A DNA stretch of 64,000 nt from Candidatus Nomurabacteria bacterium (GCA_020632215.1 JACKFZ010000006.1:12574-76573); one strand, 5' to 3'. Shown: positions 1,825 to 45,258, counted from the first letter of the stretch. A program made the numbers and translations. The notes: generated by a model from the letters alone, not told the origin.

Positions 1825-1876
1825 AAGTAGAAAAATTGTAACATAATTAGAATGTAGTATGAAGAATGTAGCACCA

Positions 1877-1926
1877 GTCATCCTGAACTTTGGCGCGAGC
1901 CTGTCGAGCGTTAAGGATTCAGGATC
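1877..1926. repeat. family P palindromic element (short form)
   Basis: Termini gtcatcctgaac and ttcaggatc. Confidence 0.6.
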
Positions 1927-2118
1927 TTTTTAAAATGATCTTACATAGCATGTTTACTCCTTACATAACTACAGAATGACACAGTTGCTACTTTCCCATT
2001 TTAAGTTATTATGTCTGACACAACAAAGTTTTGCCGAAGTGGCCAAAAGTATTAGCTGGTAGACGCACAGGTGCCCTTTGTCGCTAAAGTTTGTAAGATT
2101 AAAGAAAACGTATTACTT

Positions 2119-2200
2119 GCCGGAGTGATGAAATTGGTAAACATGCACGACTCAAAATCGTGTGCCGCAAGGCTTGTGGGTTCAAGTCCCACCTCCGGCA
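2119..2200 (+). tRNA. tRNA-Leu (anticodon CAA)
   Basis: Cloverleaf read by eye. The acceptor stem pairs gccggag with ctccggc. The anticodon stem-loop is cacga-cTCAAAa-tcgtg, giving anticodon CAA. It has a long variable arm (gccgcaaggcttgtg) and a T-arm GGTTCAAGTCC. The track ORF 2071..3105 spuriously reads through it. Confidence 0.75.
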
Positions 2201-2208
2201 CTATTTCA

Positions 2209-3105
2209 ATGAACAAACCAAAGATTTTAGTCATACTAGGACAAACAGCCACTGGTAAAAGTGATTTGGCTGTTGATTCAGCCAAGACATTTCATGGTGA
2301 AATTATCTCTGCTGACTCCAGACAAGTATATAAAGGGCTTAATATCGGTTCTGGAAAGATTACCAAAAAGGAAATGAAAAAAGTGCCACATCATTTACTT
2401 GATGTCCTTTCTCCAAAAAGGACTTTCTCTGTCTCTCAGTTTCAAAAGAAAAGCACTAAAATCATCAAGGATATTTTTAAAAAAGATAAATTACCTATCA
2501 TATGTGGTGGCACCGGTTTTTATATTCAATCAATAGTTGATGATCTCTCAATTCCCACTGTTAAGGAAAATAAAGAATTAAGAAAAAAATTAGAAAAATG
2601 GAAAACTGAGAAACTTTTTGAAACATTAGAAAAACTTGACCCTGAACGAGCTCAGAGTATTGATAGAAACAATAGAGTGAGATTGATTAGAGCTATAGAG
2701 ATAGTAAAGAGTATTGGTAAAGTACCAAAGATTAGAAAAAGTAGTCCCTATGATGTTCTCCAGATTGGACTAGAATGGCCAGATAATATTTTGAAGAAGA
2801 GAATAAAGGATAGACTTTTGAAAAGAATAAAGAGTGGAATGATAAAAGAAGTAAAAGATTTACATAAAAATGGTTTGTCTTGGAAAAGGATGGAGCAATT
2901 GGGATTAGAGTATAGGTATGTCTCTTTGTTTTTACAAAACAAAATATCTAAAGAAGAAATGATTGAAAAACTAAATACTGAAATATGGCATTACGCCAAA
3001 AGACAAAAAACTTGGTTTAAGAAAGATAAGAGAATAAAGTGGTTTTCTCCAAAAGAGGTTAGGAAGATAGAAAAAGAGATTAAAGGTTTTCTCTTATCAA
3101 ACTAG
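2209..3105 (+). CDS. miaA: tRNA dimethylallyltransferase
   Basis: P-loop sequence ILVILGQTATGKSDLAV followed by SADSRQVYKGLNIGSGK, typical of MiaA. The start was reset to the first ATG after tRNA-Leu. Confidence 0.85.
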   Translation: MNKPKILVILGQTATGKSDLAVDSAKTFHGEIISADSRQVYKGLNIGSGKITKKEMKKVPHHLLDVLSPKRTFSVSQFQKKSTKIIKDIFKKDKLPIICGGTGFYIQSIVDDLSIPTVKENKELRKKLEKWKTEKLFETLEKLDPERAQSIDRNNRVRLIRAIEIVKSIGKVPKIRKSSPYDVLQIGLEWPDNILKKRIKDRLLKRIKSGMIKEVKDLHKNGLSWKRMEQLGLEYRYVSLFLQNKISKEEMIEKLNTEIWHYAKRQKTWFKKDKRIKWFSPKEVRKIEKEIKGFLLSN

Positions 3106-3511
3106 CAACAGCTTGTAATTCTTCTTCCGGACTATCTTCCCTGCTACCTGGTCTATATAGAAACTTCCTAGGCTCATATTCCGTAATACCTGTATCCCCT
3201 TCTTTTCTCGGTAAAACATGAAGATGAAAGTGTGACACAGATTGACCTGCAATAGCTCCATCATTCCAAGCATAGTTAAAACCCGTAGCATCAAAAGTCT
3301 TCATCGATGCTTCTTTTATTTTCAATCTTAAATCATCAATAGCCTCTTGTTCCTCTTTACTTAGTTCATCAAAACTAGCAATACATCTCTTGGGAGCTAT
3401 TAGAATATGTCCTGGGACAATAGGAATATTTGTCAAAAAAGCCCATGCCAAATCGTTAGACAGAACTTCCCTTTCTTTAATCTCTGGAATTGTGCAAAAT
3501 GGACAAGACAT
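3080..3511 (-). CDS. HIT-family (histidine triad) hydrolase
   Basis: Contains the HFHLHVLPR histidine-triad motif. Convergent with miaA and overlaps its 3' end by 26 nt. Confidence 0.8.
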   Translation of the reverse strand: MSCPFCTIPEIKEREVLSNDLAWAFLTNIPIVPGHILIAPKRCIASFDELSKEEQEAIDDLRLKIKEASMKTFDATGFNYAWNDGAIAGQSVSHFHLHVLPRKEGDTGITEYEPRKFLYRPGSREDSPEEELQAVASLIRENL

Positions 3512-3513
3512 GA

Positions 3514-4362
3514 TTATTTTTTTCTCACATCAAAATATATGCGATATTTTTCTACTTTGTAAGTTTCATCTTCAAAAACATTAAATATTAAATTACCATC
3601 TTTATCTATAAAAAAGTTAATAGTGCCAGAAAACATATTTTCAAATTCACTTTCTTGTGCATCTTCACAATAAGCCAAAGTCGTCATCAGAAGATTAATA
3701 ACAATTCTATTAGCACTGAGACTAAATGTCCCTCCTTTACTGTTACAGTCTGTGCTAATACTAATACTGCCATCATCTGAAAAGTTTAAATTAAATAAAT
3801 CTGGATGATCTGGGTATATATCAGATCCATCATTTACCTCTGCATGATTCCATCTAAAAGTATGCTGCGCAAAGTATTCTATATTTTTTTCATTTACCAA
3901 ATCATCAGAATCTTTATATGATTCAAAAATTATTTCACCATCTTTTTTAACAATAAATTTTCCAGCTTCAGATGTTACTTCAATATTTTCTTTTGTATTT
4001 ATAAATGTAGTGTTACTAATAACATCCAAATTTAAATCATATATATTTTGTCCTGGCATATCTAACACAACAACATCAGATGTGGCGAAAAAAGTTAAAA
4101 TCAGCTCCTCATTTGCCTGTGAAAAATAATGTTCAACTGATGTGTAGATATCTTCTGGTTTTGTTTCATCAGTAATACCAGGTGGTAGGTTTTGATTCAC
4201 ATCAGATTCACCTTCTTCGTAGATCTCAACATTCGCAGACTGATCTTTGTTGTATTTATCAAAAACAAAATCCTCATAAGGATTGCTATTTAAGTAGTTG
4301 AAAAAGAAAAAAGCTGTAACAACTAGTAGAAATAAAATTATATAAATAATTAATCTTTTCAT
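3514..4362 (-). CDS. hypothetical membrane-anchored or secreted protein
   Basis: N-terminal transmembrane/signal segment (LIIYIILFLLVVTAFFFF) with an acidic extracytoplasmic body. No recognisable motif. Confidence 0.45.
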   Translation of the reverse strand: MKRLIIYIILFLLVVTAFFFFNYLNSNPYEDFVFDKYNKDQSANVEIYEEGESDVNQNLPPGITDETKPEDIYTSVEHYFSQANEELILTFFATSDVVVLDMPGQNIYDLNLDVISNTTFINTKENIEVTSEAGKFIVKKDGEIIFESYKDSDDLVNEKNIEYFAQHTFRWNHAEVNDGSDIYPDHPDLFNLNFSDDGSISISTDCNSKGGTFSLSANRIVINLLMTTLAYCEDAQESEFENMFSGTINFFIDKDGNLIFNVFEDETYKVEKYRIYFDVRKK

Positions 4363-4364
4363 GA

Positions 4365-5111
4365 TTATCTCTTTATTACATCAGCTACTATAGCATAATG
4401 ATCACTGACTCCAGTCTCAAAATACATATTTTTTATCTCATATTCTGGTGTAGAAAAAAGTCCATCAACCATATATGGTAAATAACCAGCCCGATGTAGA
4501 TTTGCATCCAAGCTAGTTTCGTATTTTGGATCTATGTTATCTTTATATTTAGAAGATATTATTTCAAAAATTTCCATACCGCGTGGTGCATTAAAGTCAC
4601 CACAAACTACAAGCTCAGAAAGATTCTCTAAACTATTCATTAATCCACCAATATGTTCTTTTTGAAAATTATCTGCCACACCATTCTCACTTTTACAAAA
4701 ATGTGTCGTTGCAATTCTAAAAGAACTATCTCCTTTTTTAAAATCAGCAGACAAAACTACCATAGCTAAATCAGTAAATATACCTTGTCTGTATATCTTA
4801 ATATTTTCTATATCTCTAAAATAATACTCTTTCCTTTCATTATTCTTTTCAAGATTGGAAATAATAGCAATACCAAAATTCCTATACTCAGTCTTTAAAT
4901 GATCTTCCCTTTTCACTTCTTTATAAAACATATTTCCAAACTGATACTGACCTCCGACCTTTTTGGCAAAATCTTTAGCATCATCTTCAAAAACCTCCAT
5001 CATGCACAATACATCAGGTTTAATTCTATCTATTAAATTATTGATCTTATCTAAATGTCTTTTTCCTTCTATATTTACTGAAAGTAGTTTTAAAGGGTCT
5101 TCTCCCGACAT
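4365..5111 (-). CDS. endonuclease/exonuclease/phosphatase (EEP) family protein
   Basis: EEP signature residues GDFNAPRG and C-terminal SDHYAIVADV. Confidence 0.6.
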   Translation of the reverse strand: MSGEDPLKLLSVNIEGKRHLDKINNLIDRIKPDVLCMMEVFEDDAKDFAKKVGGQYQFGNMFYKEVKREDHLKTEYRNFGIAIISNLEKNNERKEYYFRDIENIKIYRQGIFTDLAMVVLSADFKKGDSSFRIATTHFCKSENGVADNFQKEHIGGLMNSLENLSELVVCGDFNAPRGMEIFEIISSKYKDNIDPKYETSLDANLHRAGYLPYMVDGLFSTPEYEIKNMYFETGVSDHYAIVADVIKR

Positions 5112-5194
5112 ATAATTCCATATATTCTAACAAAAAAATTATGTGCTGGCGATTTACTGATTTGATTTATTTTGATAGAGTAAATGGCCATACA

Positions 5195-5265
5195 GGGCGA
5201 TTAGTTAAGTGGCATAATAGAGGTCTCCAAAACCTCGGTCGGGGGTTCGATTCCCTCATCGCCCG
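5195..5265 (+). tRNA. tRNA-Trp (anticodon CCA)
   Basis: Acceptor stem gggcgat/atcgccc. Anticodon arm gaggt-cTCCAaa-acctc gives anticodon CCA. T-arm GGTTCGATTCC. Confidence 0.75.
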
Positions 5266-5267
5266 CA

Positions 5268-5294
5268 TAAAATAAGATCCCCACTTTCGCGGGG
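5268..5294 (-). terminator. GC hairpin (ccccgcgaaagtgggg on the minus strand) followed by a T-rich tract; likely terminator shared by rpmG and tRNA-Trp
   Basis: Palindrome 5279-5294. Same hairpin family as the one at 7072-7087. Confidence 0.45.
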
Positions 5295-5359
5295 ACAACC
5301 AAAAACATAGTCGTCACGTAAAAACAGCTTCGCTGTTCACATGACCTCCTTGTTTTTGT

Positions 5360-5515
5360 TTACTTCTTAGTTTCCTTCCAAACAGTCTTCTTTCGGAGTC
5401 TAGGGTTATATTTTTTAAGCTCCAGCTTCTTTTCAACTGTTTTTTTGTTCTTTCGTGTATAGCGAATATCGCCTGTTTCTGAACACTTTAGTTTTACTAG
5501 TTTATCTTGAGACAT
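5360..5515 (-). CDS. rpmG: 50S ribosomal protein L33 (51 aa; too short for the ORF track)
   Basis: Manual translation of the reverse strand gives [51 protein letters not shown]. This matches the L33 pattern (Cys..Tyr-T-K-N-K.., LELKKYxPRxRKHT). Confidence 0.75.
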
Positions 5516-5651
5516 ATTTTTAGTCCCTACAGACTATCAGACTACGCTAAAAAAGCAAGTTTCCGAGCCATACTTTATCTATATTTCATCATTGACATTA
5601 GTATGAAATGCTGATATAATATGAAAATAATCAATAAATTAAGTAAAAATC

Positions 5652-7025: not shown

Positions 7026-7071
7026 ACTCAATGTCTTCCTAAAGAAACTAAAAGTCACCTACTACCTCTGT

Positions 7072-7095
7072 CCCCGCGAAAGCGGGGATCTTTTG
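7072..7095 (+). terminator. intrinsic terminator: ccccgc-GAAA-gcgggg hairpin followed by TTTT
   Basis: Perfect 6-bp GC stem with a GAAA tetraloop at 7072-7087 and a T-run at 7091-7094, lying 45 nt after the stop of the 5652..7025 ORF. Confidence 0.65.
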
Positions 7096-7276
7096 TGATA
7101 TTCAGAGTCTCTTTAGAAAGTTTATGAGAATGTAGAATGCGTGCCCCATATAGCGAAGCTTGTTTGGGGTAGTTTGTAGAATAGTTATTAAAAATCATAC
7201 AAACAAGAAAAACTGTCGTGTTAACTGCACGATTTTTTGTATTAGACAAAAATCAATCAATATTGTAGTATCGCAA

Positions 7277-7552
7277 ATGGAAAGGAGTCGGAGCAAACCA
7301 GCCGACACACAAGTTATGGTTAGAGAACGTATTACACATAAAAGTAAATTGTTTACTGTTTTCGGCAGAGTGCTTATTCAAGATCTCCTAGCCAATGCTG
7401 GTCTCGGCGATTACCTCGCATGTGACAGCGGTTTTTATGATCAAGCGGAAGATATTCCATGCTCAGACAAAACCATATTGGAAATGCTCATAAAGTGGGC
7501 TCGGGAAGGAAAAATCTCCGCCGAAAACTTGGTCGAACTCTTGAACGCATAA
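7277..7552 (+). CDS. hypothetical small protein (91 aa)
   Basis: ATG with a weak AAAGGAG-like upstream motif, locally higher GC, and a hairpin plus T-run downstream (7590-7616). No family recognised. The track ORF start at 7160 is unlikely because it sits inside repeat sequence. Confidence 0.35.
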   Translation: MERSRSKPADTQVMVRERITHKSKLFTVFGRVLIQDLLANAGLGDYLACDSGFYDQAEDIPCSDKTILEMLIKWAREGKISAENLVELLNA

Positions 7553-7589
7553 CGTGATAGTCTGCCCGACCAATCAAAAAACTTTTTAA

Positions 7590-7616
7590 AAAAGTCCTCC
7601 CCGGAGGCACTTTTTA
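7590..7616. terminator. A-run / imperfect GC hairpin / T-run, probably a bidirectional terminator
   Basis: aaaaaagtcctccccggaggcacttttt lies between convergent genes at 7277..7552 (+) and 7618..8028 (-). Confidence 0.4.
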
Positions 7617-7617
7617 T

Positions 7618-8028: not shown

Positions 8029-8043
8029 AATTTATATATAATT

Positions 8044-10101
<2,058 letters not shown>

Positions 10102-12954: not shown

Positions 12955-12957
12955 GAT

Positions 12958-16288: not shown

Positions 16289-16521
16289 TACTCTACCATT
16301 TTAGCAAGGTTTTTCAATATTATTTATATATTTATCCAAACAATACTTTGAAATTTCTAGTATAACTTTTTGATGGTAATCATTAGTCTTTTATAAGAAA
16401 ACAGCAATTTCATCTATTCAATAATAACGCAGTTCTAGAATTTAATATTTAATATTTAGTATTTGTTTCGGATTTCGTGCTTCGAATTTCGAATTTTAAA
16501 ATCTGCTTGCAGATTTTACTG

Positions 16522-19132: not shown

Positions 19133-20086
19133 TTATTCCCCCCTACTAGCTTCAGATAGCTTATCCAAAATATCATCCAGATCTCCAAGCATAATACCTT
19201 CGATATTGTGCCAACTCTCCTTGATTCTGTGATCTGTCACCCTGTTCTGAGGAAAATTATATGTTCTAATCTTTTCAGAACGATCTCCTGTCCCCACTTG
19301 ATTCTTTCTTTCTGAAGCATACTTCTTAGCTTCTTCCTCTTCTTGCAGAGCTTCTACTTTTGCAGTCAATATTTGTAATGCTCTCTCCCTATTGGCCTGT
19401 TGGCTTCTTTCAGCTGTTGATCTGACTTCAAGACCTGTTGGCTTATGCACTAAACGAACAGCAGTCTCAACCTTATTTACATTCTGTCCCCCTTTCCCAC
19501 CAGCTCTTGAGAACTCCATTTCTAAATCTTCTGGTCTCAGAACTACTTGAGACTTTTTCCTCATTGGTAAGATAGCTACTGAGGCTGTTGAAGTATGTAT
19601 TCTTCCCTGTTTTTCAGTGGCTGGAATTCTCTGTACTCGATGCACACCAGTTTCAAATCTAAGATTTTCATAAACTCCCTGACCTCTTATTTCAAAACTA
19701 GCTTCTTTGTAGCCTCCAATATCATTTGTAGATTCATAAAGCTTACGAACAGACCATTCTTGTCTTTCAGCATATCGACTATACATTTCCGCTAATTGAT
19801 AAGAAAAAATAGACGCTTCATCACCCCCAGCGCCAGCCCTAACTTCCAAAACAATCTCATTAGGAAATTCATCTTCTTTTTCTTCCTGAGTTAAGATATC
19901 GTCCATCTGGGTTAATATAGCTTTTTGTTGTTCATCAATCATCTTTAACTCATCTTCGGCCATTTCTTTCATAGCTTCATCACTAGCCATTTCCAAGACT
20001 TCTTCTCTTTGTTTTTGTAGTCGTTCAAACTCCCCCGCTAAAAACTGAGTCTTTTGATTCTCTTTGTATTTTGTTAGATCAGTCAT
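19133..20086 (-). CDS. prfA: peptide chain release factor 1
   Basis: GGQ motif ([18 protein letters not shown]) and the PAT tripeptide ([14 protein letters not shown]) that is characteristic of RF1 rather than RF2. Confidence 0.8.
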
Positions 20087-20087: not shown

Positions 20088-20127
20088 TTAGTAAATAGTA
20101 AATAGTAAATAGTAAATAGTAAAGTAG
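20088..20127. repeat. heptanucleotide tandem repeat (TAGTAAA) x5
   Basis: Sequence gttagtaaatagtaaatagtaaatagtaaatagtaaagtag. Confidence 0.8.
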
Positions 20128-20169
20128 ATTGGATTAGAAGTCTCTACTTACTACTATTGTATTTATTAC

Positions 20170-20379
20170 TTACTTTTTTGCCGCAGCCTTTCTTGCCTTA
20201 AATCTTTCAACTCGTCCAGCAGTATCTAGAACCTTTTCTTGGCCTGTATAGAAAGGATGGCAATTGCTACAGATCTCTACTTCTATCTTCTCTTTGGTAG
20301 AACCAACAGAAAAAGAATTGCCACAAGCACAAGTAACTTTCGCGTCTTTATGATATTCGGGGTGTGTCTCTTTTTTCAT
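20170..20379 (-). CDS. rpmE: 50S ribosomal protein L31
   Basis: [10 protein letters not shown]...CxCG...[10 protein letters not shown], the zinc-ribbon form of L31. Confidence 0.85.
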
Positions 20380-20607
20380 AATATAATGGCAAAGACTATA
20401 TCAGATAATGTTTCGATTGGCAATAATTTAGGAAATCCTAAATTCGAATATCGAAATAGGAAACAAATTCTAAATATTAAATATTAAAATTAAAAAAACA
20501 AGTAAATTATCATTTAGTTTATAATTTAGAGATCAGTGCTTAGAATTTGTTTCGTATTTCGTATTTAGTGCTTCGGATTTTAAAACAAGTTTGCTCGCAA
20601 ACTTGTT

Positions 20608-22687: not shown

Positions 22688-23145
22688 AGTGGGTAATAGT
22701 ATACATAAAAAGCTGAAGTGTGCAATCAGTCAGAATGTAGAACTTAGTATCTAGAATGTAGAATGTAGTTTGTAGGAAATAGCGTTCAGAAGTCAACGAC
22801 CAGCTTTCAGAAGTAGTTGTCTTGTCACCAAGGTTTGCGAAATGCAATTGATTGTTTATCTGAATTTGCAAGGATTTTAGTCATAAGCTTATCTTCCCCT
22901 TCTCAAAATAAAACATCTCCTCCTGGACAAACAGAGTCAACATGTTGGTTTTATTTGTTAAGACAATCGAATCTATCTTTACCGTTTTCTAATATTGAAA
23001 AACCACATATTTTATAAAAGTCTGATTTATTATGATTATAAAAACCAATAGCTGTTTTACTAGCTTCTTCTTTATATTCTTTGATCTTCTCCATAATCGA
23101 AATCTTTCATAGATGTTACTTTTTCTACATTCTATATACTACATA

Positions 23146-24792
23146 CTACATTCTAGTAATATGCTTCTCCATATACTCTTTACTACCTCCCACCTTCTTC
23201 CCAGGATTAAAAATATTATTTGGATCAAAAATATCTTTAACCGTCTCAAAGAGTCTATAAACTTCTTTACCAAACATTTCTTCTAAATATGGTGTTCTCA
23301 CTATCCCATCATTATGTTCAGCAGTAATAGTTCCTCCATATTCAATCACTAGTTTATAAACTTTATCAGCCACAATTCTAATCTTATCTCTTTCTTCTTT
23401 CTTATCTAGCTCCATCAGAGGAATGATGTGTAAATTACCACTACCAGCATGGCCGGCAATATTCACTTTGACATCATGTTCTTTGAGAATAGCTAAAAAC
23501 CTTGGCAAAAATTCGGGTAACTTATCAGGAGTAACACAGATATCATCTATAAACGGAGCGGTTTTTTTTCCTTTTACTTTTTGTCTTAATAGATTGAAAC
23601 TTTCGCGTCTCATAACCCAATACTTTTCAGCATCCTCATGGTCTCTAGAAACTCGATAAAGAAGTTTTTGTTTGTCCAATACTTCCTTAATCACTTTTAC
23701 TTTATTGTCCATGGCTGCCTCAGTTTTCTCAGAAATTTCCAAGAGTACAATAAGTTTTGGTAATCCCATCATTCTTATTCCAATAAAAACTTCGGGCAAA
23801 AATTTCCAGGCAAAAGATAAAAAGTTCATGCCGACTTTTTTGGCAACTTCAGGCATAAATCTCAATCCCAATTTCAAAGTTGTATCGTCAAATGTTTCCA
23901 TACTTTCTAGTTTCAATGGTAATAATTCATTGACCAATATTGGCAGATCATTCCAATTATCCAAAAAAACAGCTACCAATTTTTCATGATCATTAGACTC
24001 CACCAAACGCATTTCTGCTTCGGTTAACAAGCCCAAAGTTCCTTGTGAACCTACAAAAAGTTGTGTCAGATCAAAAGTACCAGCTTCTCTATTGTAAACA
24101 TCCCACAATGCATAACCGGAAGAATTTTTTGTTACTTTTGGTTTGGCTTTTTGAATCAAATCGTAATTTTTATCTATCAAATCAAACATTTGACGATATG
24201 TCTCTCCCTCAAAATCAGTTTGAGATTTCTTTTTTTCTAATTCCTCCCTATTCAACTTTTTGAACCTATATTCCTTTCCATTTGCCAAAACCATTTTCAA
24301 ACCCAAAACAAAGTTTCTGATCTGACCATAGCGCAAAGTTTTTTCTCCTCCACAGTTATTCATAATCATGCCACCAAGAGCAGCTAAAGATTTTGAAGCT
24401 GGATAAACAGGCATTGATATATGTTGTGGCAAAGTATCTTTTTCAAAAGTTCTAAAAAAAATTCCTGGTCCCACAATGGCTCGCAAATCTTTGACACTAA
24501 TATCTTCCTTTTTAAAATATCTTGTAAAATCTAGAATAATACCTTCATTGATGGCTCCTCCTGACATATCAGTACCAGCCGATCTACCAGTAATTGAAAG
24601 GTTTTTGTAATTCTTCTTATTCTCATTTACAAAAGAAACAATTTTGGAAACATCTTCTGTATCTTTTGGAAAAGCAACTATCTGGGGACGCACCTCGAAC
24701 AGACTAGCATCATGACTATATTTAGAAAGTGTCTCATTGTCTGCTAATACTTCTCCTTTTATAACTTTGGATAAATCGTCAGCAAGTGACAT
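23146..24792 (-). CDS. FAD-linked oxidase (GlcD / D-lactate dehydrogenase-like)
   Basis: FAD_binding_4-like N-terminal half (RSAGTDMSGGAINEGIILD) and a C-terminal FAD-oxidase domain. Confidence 0.7.
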   Translation of the reverse strand: MSLADDLSKVIKGEVLADNETLSKYSHDASLFEVRPQIVAFPKDTEDVSKIVSFVNENKKNYKNLSITGRSAGTDMSGGAINEGIILDFTRYFKKEDISVKDLRAIVGPGIFFRTFEKDTLPQHISMPVYPASKSLAALGGMIMNNCGGEKTLRYGQIRNFVLGLKMVLANGKEYRFKKLNREELEKKKSQTDFEGETYRQMFDLIDKNYDLIQKAKPKVTKNSSGYALWDVYNREAGTFDLTQLFVGSQGTLGLLTEAEMRLVESNDHEKLVAVFLDNWNDLPILVNELLPLKLESMETFDDTTLKLGLRFMPEVAKKVGMNFLSFAWKFLPEVFIGIRMMGLPKLIVLLEISEKTEAAMDNKVKVIKEVLDKQKLLYRVSRDHEDAEKYWVMRRESFNLLRQKVKGKKTAPFIDDICVTPDKLPEFLPRFLAILKEHDVKVNIAGHAGSGNLHIIPLMELDKKEERDKIRIVADKVYKLVIEYGGTITAEHNDGIVRTPYLEEMFGKEVYRLFETVKDIFDPNNIFNPGKKVGGSKEYMEKHITRM

Positions 24793-26328: not shown

Positions 26329-26497
26329 TTTCTGGTTTAAGGCGGCAGAACCTAATGCTTGCCAACTGGCCAAAACCCCAAAACCCGGTACACTCTGAAC
26401 CTCCAAGGTTCTGGGCTAGGCCGGATTTTTATTTAAGCCAAATCAATTTTTCTGCCAGAATCTAGAATTTAGTATGTATAGTTGATATATTACTTTT

Positions 26498-26543
26498 CTA
26501 CATACTACATACTACATACTACATACTACATTCTACATACTAA
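26498..26543. repeat. heptanucleotide tandem repeat (CATACTA) x5-6
   Basis: Sequence ctacatactacatactacatactacatactacattctacatacta. Confidence 0.8.
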
Positions 26544-26561
26544 ATAAGTTATAATTTTCAC

Positions 26562-31793: not shown

Positions 31794-31887
31794 GTCATCC
31801 CAGACTTGGTCTGGGATCTCGTCAACTTAATTATCTAAAGTTTTTCGAGATCCTGAAAATCCTCTGCTACGCAGGGTTTCAGGATGA
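31794..31887. repeat. family P palindromic element (long form)
   Basis: gtcatcc-cagacttggtctgg-gatctcg ... cgagatc-ctgaaa...tttcagg-atgac. Confidence 0.65.
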
Positions 31888-31895
31888 CAACTCAA

Positions 31896-32605: not shown

Positions 32606-33103
32606 TTAAAACATTGAGTCAATCTCTTCATTTCTTCTTCTATGTCTCTCCTCACCAGAAAAAGCAGTTTCTAACCAAAGAGTTACGGCTTCCTCTGCTT
32701 CTTCATTATTCAAAAATCTAGCACCCAAACTTAGAATGTTCGAATCATTATGTTCTCTGGAAATAACAATTTCATTTGGCACTTCTCTACCATCTTGAGG
32801 TTCATATTGACCATTAAAAACTACCGCTCTAATACCTGGGAATCTATTGGCCATAATAGCTTCACCTTGTCCCGAACCTCCAAGAATAATTCCTCGTGAT
32901 TCATGATCTATTGCCACAGCTTGAGCTACTGCTGCCACAAACTCAGGATAATCATCATCTTCGTCATATTCAAAATTACCATGATCAACTACTTCATAAT
33001 GTTGTTTTGATAAAAAATCTTGCAAATGTTCTTTCATCTCAAAACCAGCGTGATCAGACGCTAAGTATATCTTTGTAATGTTTTGCATTGAATTCTCGTT
33101 CAT
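32606..33103 (-). CDS. rpiB: ribose-5-phosphate isomerase B
   Basis: KIYLASDHAGFEMKEHL...GILGGSGQGEAIMANR. Confidence 0.8.
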   Translation of the reverse strand: MNENSMQNITKIYLASDHAGFEMKEHLQDFLSKQHYEVVDHGNFEYDEDDDYPEFVAAVAQAVAIDHESRGIILGGSGQGEAIMANRFPGIRAVVFNGQYEPQDGREVPNEIVISREHNDSNILSLGARFLNNEEAEEAVTLWLETAFSGEERHRRRNEEIDSMF

Positions 33104-33188
33104 AAATTAGTATGTAGAATGTAATATATAGAATTTAGAATGCCTGCCCCGTATATCGAAGCTTGTTCGGAGCAGTATGTAGCTTCCG

Positions 33189-34220
33189 TCATCCTGAAAC
33201 AACTACACTCCCTGTCTTTATTACATGCTCTACTAATGAGTTAGTATACCCAATTTCGTTATCATACCAAGCCAATACCTTAACCAGATCACCATCTACC
33301 ACTTTTGTAAATGATAAATCAGCAATAGAGGCGTGGGTATTACCGACAATATCCTGAGAAACTATTGGCTCATCAGTAACCGCAAATATACCCTTCCACC
33401 TATCTTCTGTCGCTGCTTTTTTTAATATTTCATTTACTTTTTCAACTGTTGTTTTCTTTTTTGATATAAAAGTAATGTCAGCTATAGAACCAACAGGTAC
33501 TGGCACTCTGAGAGAAATTCCATCAAATTTACCTTCTAAACTTGGCAAAACTTTTGTAGTAGCAATTGCCGCACCAGTTGTTGCAGGAATAATATTCAAT
33601 GCAGCCGCCCTACCAGAACGCAAATCTTTTTTAGCTGGGCCGTCAACCAGAGATTGAGAAGCTGTGTATGCATGCACAGTATTTAAAACAGCTTTCTTTA
33701 TCCCTAACCCCTCACTTAGAATTGTCATAACCGGACTTCCTGCGTTTGTTGTACAAGATGCATTTGAACTCACAACGCAAGTAGCAAACTTATCTTCATT
33801 AACTCCCATCAAGATAGTTCCTTCACTTTCTCCACTTGGATCATCTTTGGCAGGTGCTGAAATAACCACTCGCTTTGCTCCAGCCATAACATGAGCTCTG
33901 GCATCAGCAAATTTTGTGAAAAATCCTGTAGATTCAACCACCACATCTATTTTCATTTCACCCCATGGAAGTTTAGACGGATCTTTTTCTTGAACTACTC
34001 TTACCAAATGTCCGCCAGCAATGATGTTTCCATCTTTCACTTCTACCTCAAATCCAGAACGTCCGTAGACAGAATCATATTTCAAGAGATAAGCTAGATT
34101 ATCTATATCACCTAGATCATTGATGGCGACAATCTCTATTTCTTCTCTTTGTTGAGCTAACTTAAAAAAAGCTCGACCGATTCTTCCAAAACCATTAATG
34201 GCAACACGAATTTTACTCAT
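33189..34220 (-). CDS. gap: glyceraldehyde-3-phosphate dehydrogenase
   Basis: Rossmann MSKIRVAINGFGRIGR and the catalytic SNASCTTN. Confidence 0.9.
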   Translation of the reverse strand: MSKIRVAINGFGRIGRAFFKLAQQREEIEIVAINDLGDIDNLAYLLKYDSVYGRSGFEVEVKDGNIIAGGHLVRVVQEKDPSKLPWGEMKIDVVVESTGFFTKFADARAHVMAGAKRVVISAPAKDDPSGESEGTILMGVNEDKFATCVVSSNASCTTNAGSPVMTILSEGLGIKKAVLNTVHAYTASQSLVDGPAKKDLRSGRAAALNIIPATTGAAIATTKVLPSLEGKFDGISLRVPVPVGSIADITFISKKKTTVEKVNEILKKAATEDRWKGIFAVTDEPIVSQDIVGNTHASIADLSFTKVVDGDLVKVLAWYDNEIGYTNSLVEHVIKTGSVVVSG

Positions 34221-34353
34221 AATAAAAAGCAGTGGTTATTTGTAATGGTTTTATTATAGCAAGGTTAGGTAGTAGATAATAGGTAATAGTGAATAGTAAA
34301 AGCTGTCAGAAGTCAGCGGTCAGCTTTCAGAAATAGCATTGTATTACCACACA

Positions 34354-34397
34354 GTCATCCTGAAACCCTGGAGTGAAATGGAAGGGGTTTCAGGATC
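34354..34397. repeat. family P palindromic element (short form, 12-bp stem)
   Basis: gtcatcctgaaaccc / gggtttcaggatc. Confidence 0.65.
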
Positions 34398-34414
34398 TTT
34401 TTAATTGAAACTTT

Positions 34415-37572: not shown

Positions 37573-37817
37573 CTATTTTAGTTATTCTTCCAATATCTCA
37601 GGTATACCTGTGTCGGAATAAAAGACTTCAAAATCTTTATCTACCATATATCTTTTGTAAGTCATAAAAATAGAAACTCCTAATAAGACAAGGAAAAGAA
37701 GTATTACTAATTTATGAGTTTTACTAATCATAGATACCTGTAGGTTCATTGTAACACAATGACTCTGTCAAAAATGAGAAATCCACAATAAAAAATCCCT
37801 AGGCGAACACTTGGTCG

Positions 37818-38492: not shown

Positions 38493-38581
38493 CTAATGTC
38501 TCCTTTCTTGAAGCTTGAAGTTGGGGTTGATTTTTTCTAATTTAAATTATATAATAAATTCTATTAAAAGTCAAATAAAGC

Positions 38582-39076: not shown

Positions 39077-40284
39077 AACGTCGAACTAATATTGTAAATA
39101 GGTATCAAGACTGATGCCAAGAGGGTACCTACTCCCAAAGCTAGCAAAATAATCATTGTAGGCTCTATAAGACCAACTAGTGTATCTACAGCATTTGTTA
39201 CTTCCCTTCTATAAAACTTAGCCAGACTAGAGAGAATACTCCCTAGATTTCCAGATTCTTCTCCAACACGCATCATTTGTATAAAAATATTTGGAAACTG
39301 TTCCTGATGTTTTGCGAAAGCATCTGAGACAGCAGAACCACCCTTAACTATCTCTGTACTTTTCTCTATTGCATCAAGGTAAATACGATTGTCTACAACT
39401 GACTGAGTAAGCTCTAAGGCTTTTACAACTGGGATACCAGAAGCAAGCATGGTATCCATGTTGTCTGCAATTCTTGAAAGATATAGCTTCTTATACAGAT
39501 TCCCAACATAAGGAACTTCCAATTTAAATCGATCATACGATTCTTTTCCTGTTTCTGTTCTAACAAATCTAAACAGAAAAAATAACCCGACGATAAAAGC
39601 GATCAATAGAAAGATTCCGTAGTTAATAAAGAAATTAGACAAACCAATTACAACTTGTGTGTAAGCAGGCACATCTTGACCTGATTCAGTCAAAATAGCA
39701 CTGATCTTTGGAATAACCAAAGTTAGCATAAGAACCATTACAACAATAAAGGTAAAAACAACGAATGCAGGATATATCAAAGCGTTTTTGGCCTTTTGTG
39801 TAACTTCATATGTCCTATCAAGATAGTCAGCAAGGTATTCAAATGTCTCGTCCAACTTTCCAGACTCTTCTCCAGCTTTAACCATGTTGACATAAAAAGG
39901 AGAAAAAACATCAGGGTGTTTTGCCAGAGAATCAGATATGGTACTTCCTCCCTGTAGACTTTCCGATATATCAGCTAGCTTTCTAGATAGTTTTGGGTTT
40001 TCTGTTTCAGCTGCTAAAAGTCTAAAAGTTCTTAGAGCAGAAATCTGTGACTCGAAAAGAGTAGCCATTTGCCTAGACAAAATGACAATGTCTCTATTGC
40101 TAACTCTATCAAAAATAGCAATATTTTTTGATAGAACTGATCCCTCAGTTTCAGCTTCATTAATGTTAGAAATAACGAAACCTCTTCTTTGTAAAGAAGC
40201 AATAGCCACATCAAGATTTATAGCCTCAATAGTTCCCTTTTTTTCTTGTCCTTCTGTATCTATTGCTTGATAAACAAATAACAT
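39073..40284 (-). CDS. pilC: type IV pilus / type II secretion platform protein
   Basis: Two GspF-like repeats and three transmembrane segments. Confidence 0.8.
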   Translation of the reverse strand: MLFVYQAIDTEGQEKKGTIEAINLDVAIASLQRRGFVISNINEAETEGSVLSKNIAIFDRVSNRDIVILSRQMATLFESQISALRTFRLLAAETENPKLSRKLADISESLQGGSTISDSLAKHPDVFSPFYVNMVKAGEESGKLDETFEYLADYLDRTYEVTQKAKNALIYPAFVVFTFIVVMVLMLTLVIPKISAILTESGQDVPAYTQVVIGLSNFFINYGIFLLIAFIVGLFFLFRFVRTETGKESYDRFKLEVPYVGNLYKKLYLSRIADNMDTMLASGIPVVKALELTQSVVDNRIYLDAIEKSTEIVKGGSAVSDAFAKHQEQFPNIFIQMMRVGEESGNLGSILSSLAKFYRREVTNAVDTLVGLIEPTMIILLALGVGTLLASVLIPIYNISSTF

Positions 40285-40289
40285 AATTT

Positions 40290-41351: not shown

Positions 41352-41353
41352 AA

Positions 41354-41761
41354 TTATTTGCTTAAATACTCTTCTACTTTTTTTACAACCTCAGAAGGTG
41401 TAGACATTGCTTTGACAATAAAACCATCTACCTTAAATTGTGCTGCATGATCTTTTTCTTCATTTTCACCCTGGTTAGACAAAATGATTATCTTGCTATC
41501 TTCAGCGAGTCTATTTTCCCTAACTTGCTTAACAAAAGTCCAACCATCCATACCAGGCATAATAATGTCACAAAGCAAAGCATCTGGCATCAAGCCGTCT
41601 CTTAATTTTTCTAAACATTCTTCTGCTTTAGTAAATACCATAACTTCATAGTTCCCTTTTTTAAACTTCATTGAATACATATCTAGTAAGAATGAATCAT
41701 CATCGATCATTACTACTAGCGGTTTTTTATTATTATCTGTTGTTTCTGTCATATTAAACAA
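41354..41761 (-). CDS. single-domain response regulator (CheY/PilH-like)
   Basis: Receiver-domain residues VVMIDDD...DIIMPGMDG...K. Confidence 0.7.
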   Translation of the reverse strand: MFNMTETTDNNKKPLVVMIDDDSFLLDMYSMKFKKGNYEVMVFTKAEECLEKLRDGLMPDALLCDIIMPGMDGWTFVKQVRENRLAEDSKIIILSNQGENEEKDHAAQFKVDGFIVKAMSTPSEVVKKVEEYLSK

Positions 41762-41774
41762 ATTATATCAAATA

Positions 41775-43502
41775 CTAAAAGTTATTCACTTCTTCAAATG
41801 GAATTTCTTTCTTTAATGACTTAATAATGGCGTCTTCTTTCATAGTAATCATACCTTTCTTTCGTACTATGTCGTATACGGCAGATTCAACTGGATTATC
41901 CAAGATAATTTTTTCAATATCTCGATCCATTTCAAACATCTCAAATACAGCCTCTCGACCTCTTGTCCCATTGGGACAGTTAGAGGTAGGCTGTAACTTC
42001 AAGACTTCTTTTGAATCTGGGATCATATCGTGAAATTCTACTGGCAAATCAGCAAATTGCTTATCCATCATCTCTTGAATACTTCCTTCGATCGGTGTCG
42101 GTATGCCTGATCCAGGACAAATCTTTCGACTTAATCGTTGAGCAACTCCCAATATCAGAGTTGGTGGAATAAGATAAGGATCGATACCCATATCGATAAG
42201 TCGTGGCACTATTCCAGCTGCTGAGTTTGTGTGAATAGTTGAGAGCACAAGGTGACCAGTAAGTGCAGCTTGAATTGCCAGCTTTGCAGTTTCTCCATCA
42301 CGAATCTCACCGACCATTATAATATCAGGATCTTGTCTCAAAGTAGTTCTCAAACCATTTGCGAATGTATAGCCAATCTCAGCATGAATTTGTGATTGAC
42401 TAACTCCTTCGACACTATATTCAACAGGATCTTCTAGAGACAAAACATTATTTGTTTCTGTATCTAACTCATTAAGAATTGAGTAAAGAGTTGTAGTCTT
42501 TCCAGAACCAGTTGGACCTGAAATAAGAATCATTCCGTATGGTTTTTGAATAGCATCTTTTAGCATTTTTAGATACCTTGGATTCAAACCAATCTCTTCT
42601 AATTTCTTTACACCTTTTTCTTGATCAAGAATACGCATCACAACCTTTTCTCCATAATAAGAAGGAAAAGTAGAAACACGAAAGTCTATTTTTCTGCCAT
42701 CAATTCTAGCAGCAAAACGTCCGTCTTGTGGTTTTCTTTTTTCATCTAACTTTAATCTGGCAAGGATCTTGATACGTGCAACAACCGCTAAATGAACATT
42801 GATAGGCAAAATCAAACTAGTGTTCAAGACACCATCCACTCGAAATCTGACACGGATTTTTTCTCTCAATGGCTCAATGTGGACATCGGAAGCATTGCCC
42901 TCAACCGCATACCGCAAAATAGTAGCCACAATTTTGGTAACGGGAGCATCCTCAGTAATTTGCTCATTGATGGTTTCGTCAGTAACAGGCGTTTTGGCAG
43001 TTTTTTGTAACTGCTCTTCAAGGTCAGCATCTTCTACTGAAGTCTCGAATTCCGACAAAGCTCGCGTGACCTGCCCAGAAAGTCCTTTGTATACTTCTAG
43101 AACATGTTTAAAATCTTCCTCTGAGATGAGAAAAATTTTAAAAGGAACATCATTTTTTGAAGCGATAAAATTCAAAGCATCTCTGGCTTCTAGATCATTC
43201 GGATTCATCACCCCAACTTCTAAGAATCCATCTTTCAGATCAATCGGCACAAATTTGTAATAGTCAGCAGATTCTTCCGGAATATATTTCAAAATATCAA
43301 AAGGAACATCAACATTTGATAAATCTCTATATGGCACTTTGTAATACTCCGCCTTGGTTTTCAGAAGATCTGTCGGCATAACCCCATGACGAGTAAGCAA
43401 CTCGTCAACACTGATGTCGCTTTCGCGCATTTCCTTTTTAATCTTATCGACATCATCTGAATCGATAAGTTTTTTTTGTTCAAAAAATTCGACTATGCTC
43501 AT
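41775..43502 (-). CDS. pilB: type IV pilus assembly ATPase PilB/GspE
   Basis: Walker A ILISGPTGSGKTTTLYS and a tetracysteine-like C-terminal region. The track start at 43574 would overlap the upstream gene; the likely start is MSIVEFF at 43502. Confidence 0.8.
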   Translation of the reverse strand: MSIVEFFEQKKLIDSDDVDKIKKEMRESDISVDELLTRHGVMPTDLLKTKAEYYKVPYRDLSNVDVPFDILKYIPEESADYYKFVPIDLKDGFLEVGVMNPNDLEARDALNFIASKNDVPFKIFLISEEDFKHVLEVYKGLSGQVTRALSEFETSVEDADLEEQLQKTAKTPVTDETINEQITEDAPVTKIVATILRYAVEGNASDVHIEPLREKIRVRFRVDGVLNTSLILPINVHLAVVARIKILARLKLDEKRKPQDGRFAARIDGRKIDFRVSTFPSYYGEKVVMRILDQEKGVKKLEEIGLNPRYLKMLKDAIQKPYGMILISGPTGSGKTTTLYSILNELDTETNNVLSLEDPVEYSVEGVSQSQIHAEIGYTFANGLRTTLRQDPDIIMVGEIRDGETAKLAIQAALTGHLVLSTIHTNSAAGIVPRLIDMGIDPYLIPPTLILGVAQRLSRKICPGSGIPTPIEGSIQEMMDKQFADLPVEFHDMIPDSKEVLKLQPTSNCPNGTRGREAVFEMFEMDRDIEKIILDNPVESAVYDIVRKKGMITMKEDAIIKSLKKEIPFEEVNNF

Positions 43503-43503
43503 T

Positions 43504-43911
43504 TTACTCTGTATTTGTTGTATCCCCCGTTGTTTGATCAGCGTCATCAGCAGTATTATCCTGAGGAATCTCAATGGTAGTGCTATTGCCTAGGTTAACT
43601 CCCAAAGGAGCGAATGGATTGCTTCGACCAACAGGTTCTGGGGTCAGAACCTGACTTCTGTCTACTAAACTTCTATAAACTGGGTCTTCAAAAATTTGCC
43701 CATCTAATTTCAAGGTTTCTATCTGATTCAAAGCTTGGATTATTTCTGAACCAATAGCTTCAGCTCCAGAAGGAGAATTAACCGTACTCTTTATTAAAGC
43801 AGTATTGCTACTGCCTCCAGTAAAATAAAGAAAGACGAAAAATAGAACTATCGCTATGCCTACAATTATTATTATTTTTTTATATTTTCTAATCATAATT
43901 ATCGAAGCCAA
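43504..43911 (-). CDS. hypothetical membrane-anchored protein in the pilus cluster (PilP-like?)
   Basis: Single N-terminal transmembrane segment. Position between pilO-like and pilB. Confidence 0.35.
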   Translation of the reverse strand: MASIIMIRKYKKIIIIVGIAIVLFFVFLYFTGGSSNTALIKSTVNSPSGAEAIGSEIIQALNQIETLKLDGQIFEDPVYRSLVDRSQVLTPEPVGRSNPFAPLGVNLGNSTTIEIPQDNTADDADQTTGDTTNTE

Positions 43912-44447
43912 TATGTATTAAGAGTAACACCAAAATTCATAAACTGCCCATTGTCACCATCAATTGTTAATTTTTCAACATCAACCACTCTTAGGGCCTC
44001 TTCCAAATCTTTCAAAAATTCTAGAAAAACATCATAGGTAGAAGTCATTGAAAAACTTAAAGTGATGATTCCTATCTCATTTGAGAGTTCAGGCTGAACT
44101 TTTTTACTATCTGGTTTCTCTTCTTCTTGGCCACCAGAGACCGCTATATTTCTAATGGTAATTCCATAGGTCTCAGCGATATTGTTAATATCTAAAATCA
44201 GACGAACATTATCGACAGTATTTGGTAGTAACTTTTGTAATTGTTCCTTTTCACTAGCACTAATACTATTAAAGGATGCGTGCAATTTATCTCTTTTACT
44301 TTGTAAATCTTGAGATAATCCTAGAAGAGTATCGTTATCGGCTTTAGAATTTTGCAAATCCTTAATCTGTTTATATTGTGGGTCAATAAATAAGAAAAAG
44401 AGAGCGATGGCGATGATTATTAAAATGATTGGTGTGTACTTTTTCAT
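43899..44447 (-). CDS. PilO-like pilus assembly protein
   Basis: N-terminal transmembrane segment plus coiled coil, and its position in the pilMNO block. Confidence 0.45.
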   Translation of the reverse strand: MKKYTPIILIIIAIALFFLFIDPQYKQIKDLQNSKADNDTLLGLSQDLQSKRDKLHASFNSISASEKEQLQKLLPNTVDNVRLILDINNIAETYGITIRNIAVSGGQEEEKPDSKKVQPELSNEIGIITLSFSMTSTYDVFLEFLKDLEEALRVVDVEKLTIDGDNGQFMNFGVTLNTYWLR

Positions 44448-44449
44448 AA

Positions 44450-45130
44450 TTATTGTTGACTATTACCAAAAACTCCCAGATCATTAGCGGGCTGAGTGTT
44501 TTGACTATTATCTTCAGCAGTAGGAGTATTGTCTATCGGTACTAGATTTTTTCTAAACAAAACTAATTGAGGATCAATAGAGACAGACAGTTTAAAATTA
44601 ACATTGCCATCATCATTGGGCTCTAAACCATCAAATATTAAGTCTCTCATATAACCACTTTGATCAAATTTATCAGATTGCAGAACAACCGACTTGAAAC
44701 TATCAGCTTCTCCAGTAGCGGTTACTTTCAAAGCACCATCTCCCCCATCAGCAAAAACAAAACTTTTGAAAGAAACTGTTTGCAAAGTGAATTTTTCTAA
44801 TAAGTCAAAAATAGCAGATGGAGATAAGTGGTTATTTAATATCTTATTAGCACTCACAATTCTAGTGTTCAATCTAGTTGCTTCAGAAATAAAACCAGGA
44901 TCAAAGGCTTCTCTAGCTTTTTCTAAAGTTCTTAATTGAAGCTCAATCCTTCCTTTCAAAGTCAGTTTGTAAGCAAAAACTGCAACAGACAACAAGACAG
45001 CAGTGACAAAAATAATAACAGCAACTAGCATAAAGAAGTTAACACCCTTTTCATTTTGTGCCACTTTTTTATCCAAAGAAGGTTGAATTGGTTTCTTTGG
45101 AATAAAAGATGTTTTAAACTGCGGCTCCAT
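44450..45130 (-). CDS. PilN-like pilus assembly protein
   Basis: Single transmembrane segment after a basic N-terminus. Follows pilM. Confidence 0.45.
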   Translation of the reverse strand: MEPQFKTSFIPKKPIQPSLDKKVAQNEKGVNFFMLVAVIIFVTAVLLSVAVFAYKLTLKGRIELQLRTLEKAREAFDPGFISEATRLNTRIVSANKILNNHLSPSAIFDLLEKFTLQTVSFKSFVFADGGDGALKVTATGEADSFKSVVLQSDKFDQSGYMRDLIFDGLEPNDDGNVNFKLSVSIDPQLVLFRKNLVPIDNTPTAEDNSQNTQPANDLGVFGNSQQ

Positions 45131-45204
45131 AATTAAAATTATTATACCATTAAGAGTTTTAAATCTTCTACAAATTAAATAATAAAAGTGTTGATTAGTT
45201 TAGT

Positions 45205-45258
45205 TAGTATTTACTATTTAGTATTTAGTATTTACTATTTACTATTTACTATTTACTA
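45205..45258. repeat. heptanucleotide tandem repeat (TATTTAC / TATTTAG) x7
   Basis: Sequence agtatttactatttagtatttagtatttactatttactatttactatttactag. Confidence 0.8.

Follow-up and report, generated by a model that had tools for sequence, protein, structure and literature searches.

Heptanucleotides are over-represented among the long simple sequence repeats (SSRs) of bacteria, where they are intergenic and sporadic, and slippage has been proposed as their source (Mrazek, Guo & Shah 2007, as reported in PMC4679880 and PMC4692102). Here we describe arrays with a seven-nucleotide period (period-7 arrays) in the spacers of a 64,000-nt stretch of a metagenome-assembled genome of Candidatus Nomurabacteria (Patescibacteria; GCA_020632215.1, JACKFZ010000006.1:12574-76573), hereafter the window. 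The arrays fit the heptanucleotide long-SSR class structurally on every criterion and add to it a new phylum and a new unit family. On balance, we think they are slippage-prone, lineage-specific heptanucleotide SSRs of the long-SSR/STRR/TAACTGA kind, located partly on palindromic modules.

Several other heptamer systems have been described. TAACTGA repeats occur in marine Beggiatoaceae, some Cyanobacteria and Bacteroidetes; they lie just upstream of start codons that lack a Shine-Dalgarno (SD) sequence, show 7-nt indels between strains and coincide with contig breaks (MacGregor 2015, PMC4679880). A translational role and an RNA binder of the S1, Csp or CsrA type were proposed for them (PMC4679880). 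The GGGAATC and GGGGAYT repeats of Xanthomonas and Nostoc are G-rich heptamers with occasional inverted pairs (Rehm 2015, PMC4692102). In H. influenzae, the ATCTTTC tract of hmw1A/hmw2A forms one arm of a hairpin in the 5′ untranslated region, and its processing by RNase III is needed for regulation and for repeat instability (PMC12721329). In V. cholerae, TTTTGAT heptads of the ctxAB promoter are bound by ToxT and H-NS (bioRxiv 10.1101/2021.05.14.444153).

Arrays in the window were called with Tandem Repeats Finder and with our own scan of periods 4-12. Tandem Repeats Finder returned period-7 arrays at 20089-20123, 22732-22768, 23125-23155, 26498-26546, 33108-33142, 34266-34296 and 45204-45258; together with the shuffle comparison, this confirms the array positions proposed in an earlier sequence-only reading of the same DNA. 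In the period scan, five period-7 arrays scored 12 or more; the mean number in 30 dinucleotide shuffles was 0.03. A single period-9 array, which is a coding repeat, also reached this score, and the remaining periods of the 4-12 scan yielded none. The degenerate two-unit pattern TAGWAWDTAGWAWDTAG (TAGWAWD x2 + TAG) matched 47 times at up to two mismatches, where 3.29 ± 1.95 matches were expected, and this level was attained in 0 of 100 shuffles. Autocorrelation of the spacer sequence peaks at lags of 7, 14, 21 and 28. The arrays thus consist of head-to-tail units in the 1-11 nt range and are longer than composition predicts, as is characteristic of long SSRs.

The units belong to one family, TAG[A/T]A[A/T]N, with TAGTAAA, TAGAATG, TAGTATG and TAGTATT among its members, and the necklace classes of TAG-type heptamers are enriched 5-10x in spacers. 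This agrees with the earlier description of the units as variants of TAG-TA-nn or its complement. The same reading counted 4-7 units per array; at 1848-1871, only about three imperfect units are present. It had also placed the arrays exclusively between genes. Indeed, all nine TAG[A/T]A[A/T]N arms fall in the non-coding part of the window, roughly 10% of its length, and their only overlap with coding sequence is a stop codon: the first unit of the 23125-23155 and 45204-45258 arms includes that of the upstream gene. The heptamer, whose length is not a multiple of 3, is otherwise kept out of coding sequences.

Other repeat types were considered and rejected. The units are 7 nt long and contiguous, without spacers, which rules out a CRISPR array, and the anatomy of the arrays excludes coding repeats and G-quadruplex motifs. 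An assembly artefact can be dismissed, because independent assemblies of five sequencing runs recover identical arrays. An Rfam scan of the window returned four tRNAs only, with no RNA family at the arrays.

The arms are placed in a regular way with respect to genes. Three are TAG-type on the gene strand, and each of them starts from the stop codon of an upstream gene (pilM, the FAD oxidase gene and rpmE). Six are CTA-type on the gene strand, each directed at a downstream gene. In none of its frames does the CTA-type strand contain a start or a stop codon; the TAG-type strand carries TAG or TAA in all three. Read as TAG, 8 of 9 arms in the window are closer to the left-hand gene; the exception is the partner arm at 26456-26479, which is slightly closer to the right-hand one. 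Gene orientation and replication orientation are inseparable in the window, because 51 of its 63 open reading frames (ORFs) are on the - strand and its GC skew is uniformly negative.

Two CTA-type arms end 2-3 nt before an ATG. One of them, at 20089-20123, stops 2 nt short of the start of the prfB-like gene (19133..20086; ATG at 20086) and the other lies at the start of rpiB (33103); neither start has an AGGAGG-like SD sequence. Three more end 3-5 nt before a -10 box. The 26498-26546 array is followed by 3 nt, a TATAAT (26550-26555) and 6 nt up to the ATG of pfkB (26562), a leaderless-type geometry. At GAPDH, the array ends about 5 nt upstream of TTGCTATAAT (34253-34262; -10 at 34253-34258), and the 1848-1871 array ends about 5 nt upstream of the -10-like box TGTTACAAT (1835-1843, - strand), downstream of which lies the probable start codon (1822-1824) of gene 838..1824. 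The 22731-22782 array is upstream of a promoter-like TTGCAC-N16-TATACT (TATACT at 22698-22703). Recognisable -10 boxes have the form TGnTAnAAT, with the array always on their upstream side. The 45204-45258 array runs from a stop codon to a point about 55 nt before the TATAAT of the next gene.

No array in the window was found within an ORF, between a -35 and a -10 element, or between a recognisable -10 box and its start codon. A generic sigma-70 scan of 19-35 kb gave 58 promoter-like sites against 52.6 in shuffles, none of them within an array, and a terminator-like scan of the same region gave 9 sites against 8.8. TTTACTA arrays could in arithmetic terms serve as TTTACT-N17-TACTAT promoters; this idea was rejected, as the scan does not support it and the other unit types have no counterpart.

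Direct evidence of length change comes from natural strains. Exact-protein look-ups led to same-species contigs from five sequencing runs. The array at 45204-45258, the longest and among the most regular, occurs at full length (window, L134, L136), shortened by exactly 14 nt (L135) and shortened by exactly 35 nt (L137). The flanks are identical, with 3-10 substitutions in about 5.5 kb, and the strains are at least 99.8% identical elsewhere. This is polymorphism in whole-unit steps, as seen in long SSRs, and it bears out the expectation of the sequence-only reading that unit number would be unstable when compared across strains. The arrays at 22732, 23125, 26498, 33108 and 34266 showed no length variation across 2-5 runs; 33101-33142 and 34266-34297 were constant across four, and a single contig from another run (L140) spans 26498-26546, at unchanged length. 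Invariance of the degenerate arrays and variation of the regular one fit slippage, because slippage needs repeat purity. A flank-gap-flank search of JGI metagenomes for further 45204 alleles gave 0 matches; the species was found in NCBI and Logan data only.

Short-read contigs repeatedly end inside the arrays at 16434, 20089 and 26498, a behaviour to be expected of repeats that are polymorphic or present in many copies. Logan contigs L001 and L138 terminate within 20089-20123, L001 and L122-L124 within 26498-26546, and L138 also at 16462, within an ATTTAAT array. The exact-protein look-up of the prfB-like ORF returned no record, because gene callers extended the ORF into the array at the contig end. 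This ORF (19133-20086, with PCRF and RF-1 domains) is only 317 aa long and starts at position 32 of the PCRF profile; it has no upstream frameshift segment, and the heptamer array sits where the N-terminal exon would be.

Two further strain differences were noted. In L135 (the SRR17907852 strain), a 5-nt deletion of TTCTT at 45816-45820 splits the pilM ORF in two; this strain is also the carrier of the -14 nt allele just downstream of pilM. At 39109-39157, at the junction of the SET-domain and T2SSF genes, 14 substitutions in 49 nt separate the window from L122, which is otherwise 99.9% identical. This cluster is probably a short recombination tract.

Comparison with relatives indicates how the arrays may have arisen. 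The genome L126, whose GAPDH shares 85% amino acid and 77% nucleotide identity with that of the window, carries arrays in the same GatB-GAPDH and GAPDH-rpiB spacers. Its unit is different (CTACTAA/CTAATAA/CTATTAA), and its arrays keep their register relative to a conserved GAPDH promoter, AACCTTGYTATAAT (TTGYTATAAT). In syntenic relatives at 73-76% amino acid identity, whose GC content (34-38%) is similar, up to 21 kb are free of heptamer arrays, and the gene junctions are tight or overlapping. In L129-L131, for instance, GAPDH and rpiB overlap by 1 nt and GatB and GAPDH are 57 nt apart, whereas the same junctions of the window measure 85 and 194 nt and are filled with repeats. Absence from these distant relatives implies that the arrays are recent, lineage-specific and dispensable for the operon. 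The spacer expansion is lineage-specific; some spacers inherited their arrays, and the units were homogenised, each lineage to its own.

Where both arm types occur in one spacer, they are complementary. The rpmE-prfB spacer, in which the 20146-20172 arm base-pairs with the 20089-20123 array, is predicted to form a long AU-rich hairpin of -20.8 kcal/mol (z = -3.4; 0 of 200 shuffles equally stable), and the L126 GAPDH-rpiB spacer a fold of -26.5 kcal/mol (z = -5.3). In both cases, the predicted stem reaches from stop codon to start codon. Upstream of pfkB, 26456-26479 and 26498-26546 pair over 22 nt as inverted arms with 82-86% complementarity. Three junctions of L126 show an architecture of TAG arm, loop and CTA arm, and two of these modules are about 90% identical over about 75 nt, non-repetitive loop included. 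This loop was sought in the window and is absent from it; the inverted pairs in the window have loops that resemble neither one another nor those of L126. For arrays without a partner, the predicted stability did not exceed that of shuffles (22688-22830, z = +0.45; 45131-45262, z = +0.76), and the 26450-26561 region gave z = -1.4.

Similar arrays are found in other phyla. We collected at least 120 stretches of species-representative genomes that match an exact four-unit degenerate pattern (L002-L121) and at least 120 metagenome contigs that match TAGWATG x4 (L141-L260). Among the matches listed are Bacteroidota, filamentous Cyanobacteria, Patescibacteria, Sulfurovum, Acidobacteriota and others. 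The 866 kb of array-bearing genome loci listed contain 270 period-7 arrays, against 1-19 for any other period between 4 and 11, in line with the heptamer excess already published (Mrazek 2007, as reported in PMC4679880 and PMC4692102). When arrays are read as TAG, the left-hand gene is nearer in 66 cases against 23 (median 14 versus 119 nt) and the array starts within 10 nt of a same-strand stop codon in 27 cases, against 2 in the opposite orientation (120 genome loci listed; crude ORF calls). The metagenome replicate gave the same picture, 39:16 for the nearer left-hand gene and 11 versus 1 for stop anchoring (120 loci listed; likewise crude calls). Among the genome loci listed, an inverted partner arm lies downstream (right) in 7 cases and upstream (left) in none; such pairs come from Acidobacteriota, Cyanothece and Parcubacteria. 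This TAG-polarity rule is undescribed in the literature that we compared.

How do these arrays compare with the described systems? As far as the two citing papers portray them, the long SSRs of Mrazek and colleagues resemble the window arrays in the period-7 excess, the intergenic bias, the lineage-specific distribution and the variation in unit steps. The Patescibacteria (candidate phyla radiation, CPR) host and the TAG[A/T]A[A/T]N family are different from what is portrayed there, and our literature search found no paper linking CPR/Patescibacteria to SSRs. Stop-anchored polarity and TAG-first inverted pairing, both features of the window arrays, are undescribed for long SSRs in the literature compared.

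The likeness to TAACTGA repeats includes spacer arrays of 2-7 copies near SD-less starts, housekeeping and ribosomal protein neighbours, 7-nt steps between strains and assembly breaks. As in that system, the arrays of the prfB-like gene and rpiB are directly upstream of an SD-less start. However, tandem TAACTGA itself (TAACTGATAACTGA, up to two mismatches) has 0 matches in the window, and the orientation is reversed: in Beggiatoaceae, the stop-rich strand is the sense strand before starts, whereas in the window the stop-free CTA strand faces the starts and the stop-rich strand follows stop codons.

With the STRR of Calothrix and Nostoc and with the GGGAATC/GGGGAYT repeats, the window arrays share the organisation into per-genome intergenic heptamer families of mostly about four units, occasional stem-loop pairs, and positions that close species have in common while length and sequence vary. 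GGGAATC/GGGGAYT repeats are G-rich and quadruplex-forming, whereas the units of the window are A/T-rich, contain a single G or C, form no G-quadruplex and belong to another taxon. The STRR units that Mazel reportedly described in 1990 in a heterocystous cyanobacterium are CCCCAGT, TTGGTCA and CAACAGT; the arrays studied here, with their TAGTAAA, TAGAATG and TAGTATG units in Candidatus Nomurabacteria, fall outside that family.

Similarly to hmw and ctx, the window has heptamer tracts upstream of coding sequences and with strain-variable copy number, and the hmw tract is an RNA hairpin arm. Those systems are single, proven regulatory virulence loci with 11-63 (hmw) or 3-8 (ctx) copies, whereas the window holds many short arrays at housekeeping genes, known here from sequence alone.

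We favour slippage-prone SSRs, and the following course of events would account for them. Arrays would grow and shrink in 7-bp steps by slipped-strand mispairing; they would be homogenised and then decay locus by locus, surviving only in DNA that a compact genome can spare. The stop codons that each strand carries would limit the orientation in which they can lie. The stop-rich TAG strand is tolerated directly at a gene end, where the stop codon itself serves as the first unit, and the complementary CTA strand, free of stops and starts, fills the rest of the spacer up to the next -10 box or start codon. Several arrays are arranged as 'TAG-first' inverted pairs, which resemble small dispersed palindromic modules and are predicted to turn the whole spacer into a long AU-rich hairpin. 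We infer that the arrays are near-neutral and that any effect on expression would act via an intercistronic hairpin or a G-free leader, not via promoter spacing. Such a role would be plausible for the paired and the ATG-abutting arrays.

Several observations weigh against this explanation. Only 1 of 6 testable arrays is polymorphic, in few strains. Arrays persist at two orthologous spacers across about 23% nucleotide divergence, and each genome has one TAG-type unit family, which differs between sister genomes. Independent neutral slippage at each locus does not obviously account for this pattern, which points to homogenisation, by mobility or gene conversion, or to some factor that co-evolves. 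The CTA arrays abutting the SD-less starts of the prfB-like gene and rpiB resemble TAACTGA repeats, for which a translational role was proposed. Finally, the polarity counts come from at least 120 + at least 120 loci with crude ORF calls and are to be treated as a lead.

The first alternative, possible though doubtful, is that the arrays are terminal inverted repeats of small non-autonomous mobile elements (MITE/foldback or Correia/REP-like) and that lone arrays are decayed half-elements. Such families consist of dispersed copies that share inverted repeats and interior, and the two L126 modules of about 90% identity, with their common loop, could be such copies. The inverted pairs of the window and of the Acidobacteriota, Cyanothece and Parcubacteria loci would also fit, as would the growth of spacers from 0-57 nt in relatives to 85-194 nt in the window lineage, the fusion of arrays to other dispersed modules, and contig breaks of the sort that multi-copy sequence causes. 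However, copies are few, the loops within the window are not related, and among these few copies and strains no transposase or target-site duplication was identified. Moreover, the promoter register kept at orthologous spacers suggests inheritance rather than repeated insertion, and mobility does not explain alleles that differ in 7-bp steps.

We consider it unlikely, though compatible with a slippage origin, that the arrays are functional intercistronic RNA hairpins. The TAG arm at the stop and the CTA arm at the start would pair in read-through transcripts, and the duplex would be cut by RNase III or mask and unmask the start region, so that cistrons become coupled or uncoupled; unit number would set the stem length. 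The two folds that beat their shuffles, the recurrence at three L126 junctions and the 7:0 bias of partner arms among the wider loci listed speak for this possibility. There is also a precedent in the RNase III-processed hairpin arm of hmw (PMC12721329), and GAPDH and rpiB overlap in distant relatives, so the inserted spacer faces a formerly coupled pair. On the other hand, most arrays of the window have no complementary partner and fold like shuffles, the polymorphic array at 45204-45258 is unpaired, and more distant relatives run the operon without such an element. A broader version appears quite improbable to us: in it, a TAG arm seeded at and anchored to a stop codon plus a start-facing CTA arm would be a widespread but so far unrecognised spacer architecture of several phyla, a copy-number-tunable intercistronic hairpin that would back-stop translation in three frames, be processed (e.g. 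by RNase III) to leaderless or G-free-leader mRNAs, and replace translational coupling in the glycolytic/pentose-phosphate operon of Nomurabacteria.

The arrays might also be cis-regulatory binding sites for a trans-acting protein that binds DNA, as at the ctx heptads, or RNA, as proposed for TAACTGA repeats, with copy number setting the strength; we give this little weight. Six CTA arms are at most about 50 nt upstream of starts, before -10 boxes or against an SD-less ATG, and a unit family that is particular to each genome and differs between sister genomes is what co-evolution with a binder would give. In Nostoc, a heptamer deletion altered the output of a reporter promoter (bioRxiv 10.1101/2022.06.06.494920). 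Against this, the unit families are at least three and unrelated, arrays are found in either orientation and next to gene ends as well as starts, the genes concerned share no function, relatives express the operon without arrays, and no candidate binder can be named within the 64-kb window. A single sequence-specific binder is unlikely, because there are three unrelated unit families and the unit has turned over in the sister lineage.

Classical contingency loci, in which slippage would switch genes by altering -35/-10 spacing or reading frame, are very improbable despite the variable copy number at 45204-45258 and the phase-varying heptamer tracts of hmw1A/2A in H. influenzae (PMC12721329), because ORFs and the gaps between recognisable promoter elements are free of arrays, the sigma-70 scan matched none, the neighbours are housekeeping genes, and the 7-bp steps at 45204-45258 shift only DNA that precedes the -10 box by more than 55 nt. 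The suggestion in the sequence-only reading that the arrays tune promoter spacing (phase variation) is thus not supported.

The neighbours of the arrays are the genes for the prfB-like protein, L31, L25, FAD oxidase, PfkB, RpiB and GAPDH, with pilM as the sole envelope-related one. Phase variation typically affects genes for surface structures, virulence or restriction-modification, which these are not. The type I restriction-modification and GmrSD genes at 50-58 kb have no arrays. They belong to a defence/mobile island (49500-61000) with a type I restriction subunit R (50462-53608) and genes next to it, GmrSD (56302-58068) and a large serine recombinase (58904-60634), inside whose ORF a tRNA-Ser (60401-60491) is predicted in antisense.

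The heptamer arms and the other period-7 features are collected in Table 1.

Table 1. Heptamer arms and other period-7 features of the window
Position	Strand	Units	Context
1848-1871	+	TAGAATG TAGTATG AAGAATG TAG, short, imperfect	CTA-type on gene (-) strand
20089-20123	+	TAGTAAA x5, 100% matches	TTTACTA x5 on gene (-) strand
20146-20172	-	imperfect TAG/TAA-rich arm	begins at rpmE (L31) stop 20170-20172 (stop placed from L001 gene calls)
22731-22782	+	imperfect TAGAATG-type array	CTA-type on gene strand, 43 nt upstream of L25 start (22687)
23125-23155	-	TAGAATG/TAGTATG/TAGTATA array	TAG-type on gene strand; contains stop 23146-23148 of FAD-oxidase gene 23146..24792
26456-26479	+	CAGAATC TAGAATT TAGTATG TA, short TAG-type arm	inverted partner of 26498-26546; missing from the sequence-only reading
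26498-26546	+	CTACATA x7, 92% matches	sense strand of pfkB
33101-33142	+	imperfect TAGTATG/TAGAATG array	CTA-type on gene strand, abuts rpiB ATG (33103)
34266-34297	+	TAGGTAG TAGATAA TAGGTAA TAGTGAA TAGTAAA, degenerate	CTA-type on gene strand, upstream of GAPDH
45204-45258	-	TAGTAAA/TACTAAA (TTACTAT x7.9, 93%)	TAG-type on gene strand; pilM stop TAG 45256-45258 = first unit
16434-16496		ATTTAAT x3.6 (16434-16464) + TTTCGAA-type x4.4 (16466-16496)	beside terminator hairpin downstream of tRNA-Thr
20433-20580		41-nt inverted repeat, 78% complementary, 66 nt between arms	between rpmE and SLT-domain gene
22786-22812		CAGAAGT CAACGAC CAGCTTT CAGAAG, 7-periodic CTGAnnn-type module	second copy 34306-34332, 89% identical

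Besides TAGWAWD, the window contains three unit families that share the period alone, TTTCGnA, ATTTAAT and CTGAnnn, all additional to those first listed. TTTCGnA-type heptamers make up the arms of the 20433-20580 inverted repeat (units at 20465-20566, those at 20550-20566 included). Both copies of the CTGAnnn-type module (22786-22812 and the 34303-34335 region) directly adjoin a TAG-type array, the first being fused to the far side of 22731-22782. The 33101-33142 array is fused to a dispersed, GC-richer module at 33130-33167, which is similar to 7127-7164. The remark that arrays are often joined to other repeat modules is therefore well founded, each of these two pairs being 89% identical.

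This last module, 38 nt long (TAGAATG-GC[CG]TGCCCC[AG]TATA[GT]CGAAGCTTGTT), directly continues the TAGAATG units at both of its spacers. Another dispersed spacer family consists of GTCATCCTGAA...TTCAGGATC(TTTTT) hairpins at 1877-1933, 31795-31890, 33188-33200 and 34350-34404; in the last copy, the hairpin precedes its T-run when read on the strand opposite both flanking genes. The family resembles REP/MITE-like elements or bidirectional terminators. A GC-rich hairpin sequence of 24 nt, AAGATCCCCACTTTCGCGGGGACA, occurs at 5274-5297 and 7069-7092 in inverted orientation (96% identical), one copy after tRNA-Trp and the other after a CARDB-domain gene.

The host DNA itself is compact, with 35% GC and 90% coding sequence in the window. 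Its GAPDH is 100% identical to an NCBI protein assigned to Candidatus Nomurabacteria, and the next GAPDH relatives are Patescibacteria. Housekeeping genes include those for the prfB-like protein, L31, L25, FBA, PfkB, RpiB, GAPDH, GatB, GyrB and PheT, next to a type IV pilus cluster. Start contexts are mixed: some genes have a clear SD sequence (AGGAGG), and in many others the ATG is preceded at 6-10 nt by a TATAAT-like box, often TGnTAnAAT, which suggests that leaderless or near-leaderless mRNAs may be frequent in the window. The stop codons are TAA in 37 cases, TAG in 20 and TGA in 4.

Heptanucleotide repeats are the most over-represented long microsatellites of bacteria. The present case adds heptamer arrays from Patescibacteria, an ultra-small lineage of the episymbiont type, and gives direct evidence that natural populations hold alleles of different copy number. 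Its syntenic relatives make a clear comparative series in which arrays are present, are absent or have changed their unit, and its positional rule also held in the two wider sets of loci. In practical terms, the arrays break short-read assemblies and could be used as strain markers for uncultivated CPR populations. If proper gene calling upholds the positional rule, by which the stop-rich strand runs from a stop codon and its partner lies downstream, this rule would constrain models of how such arrays are born and tolerated.

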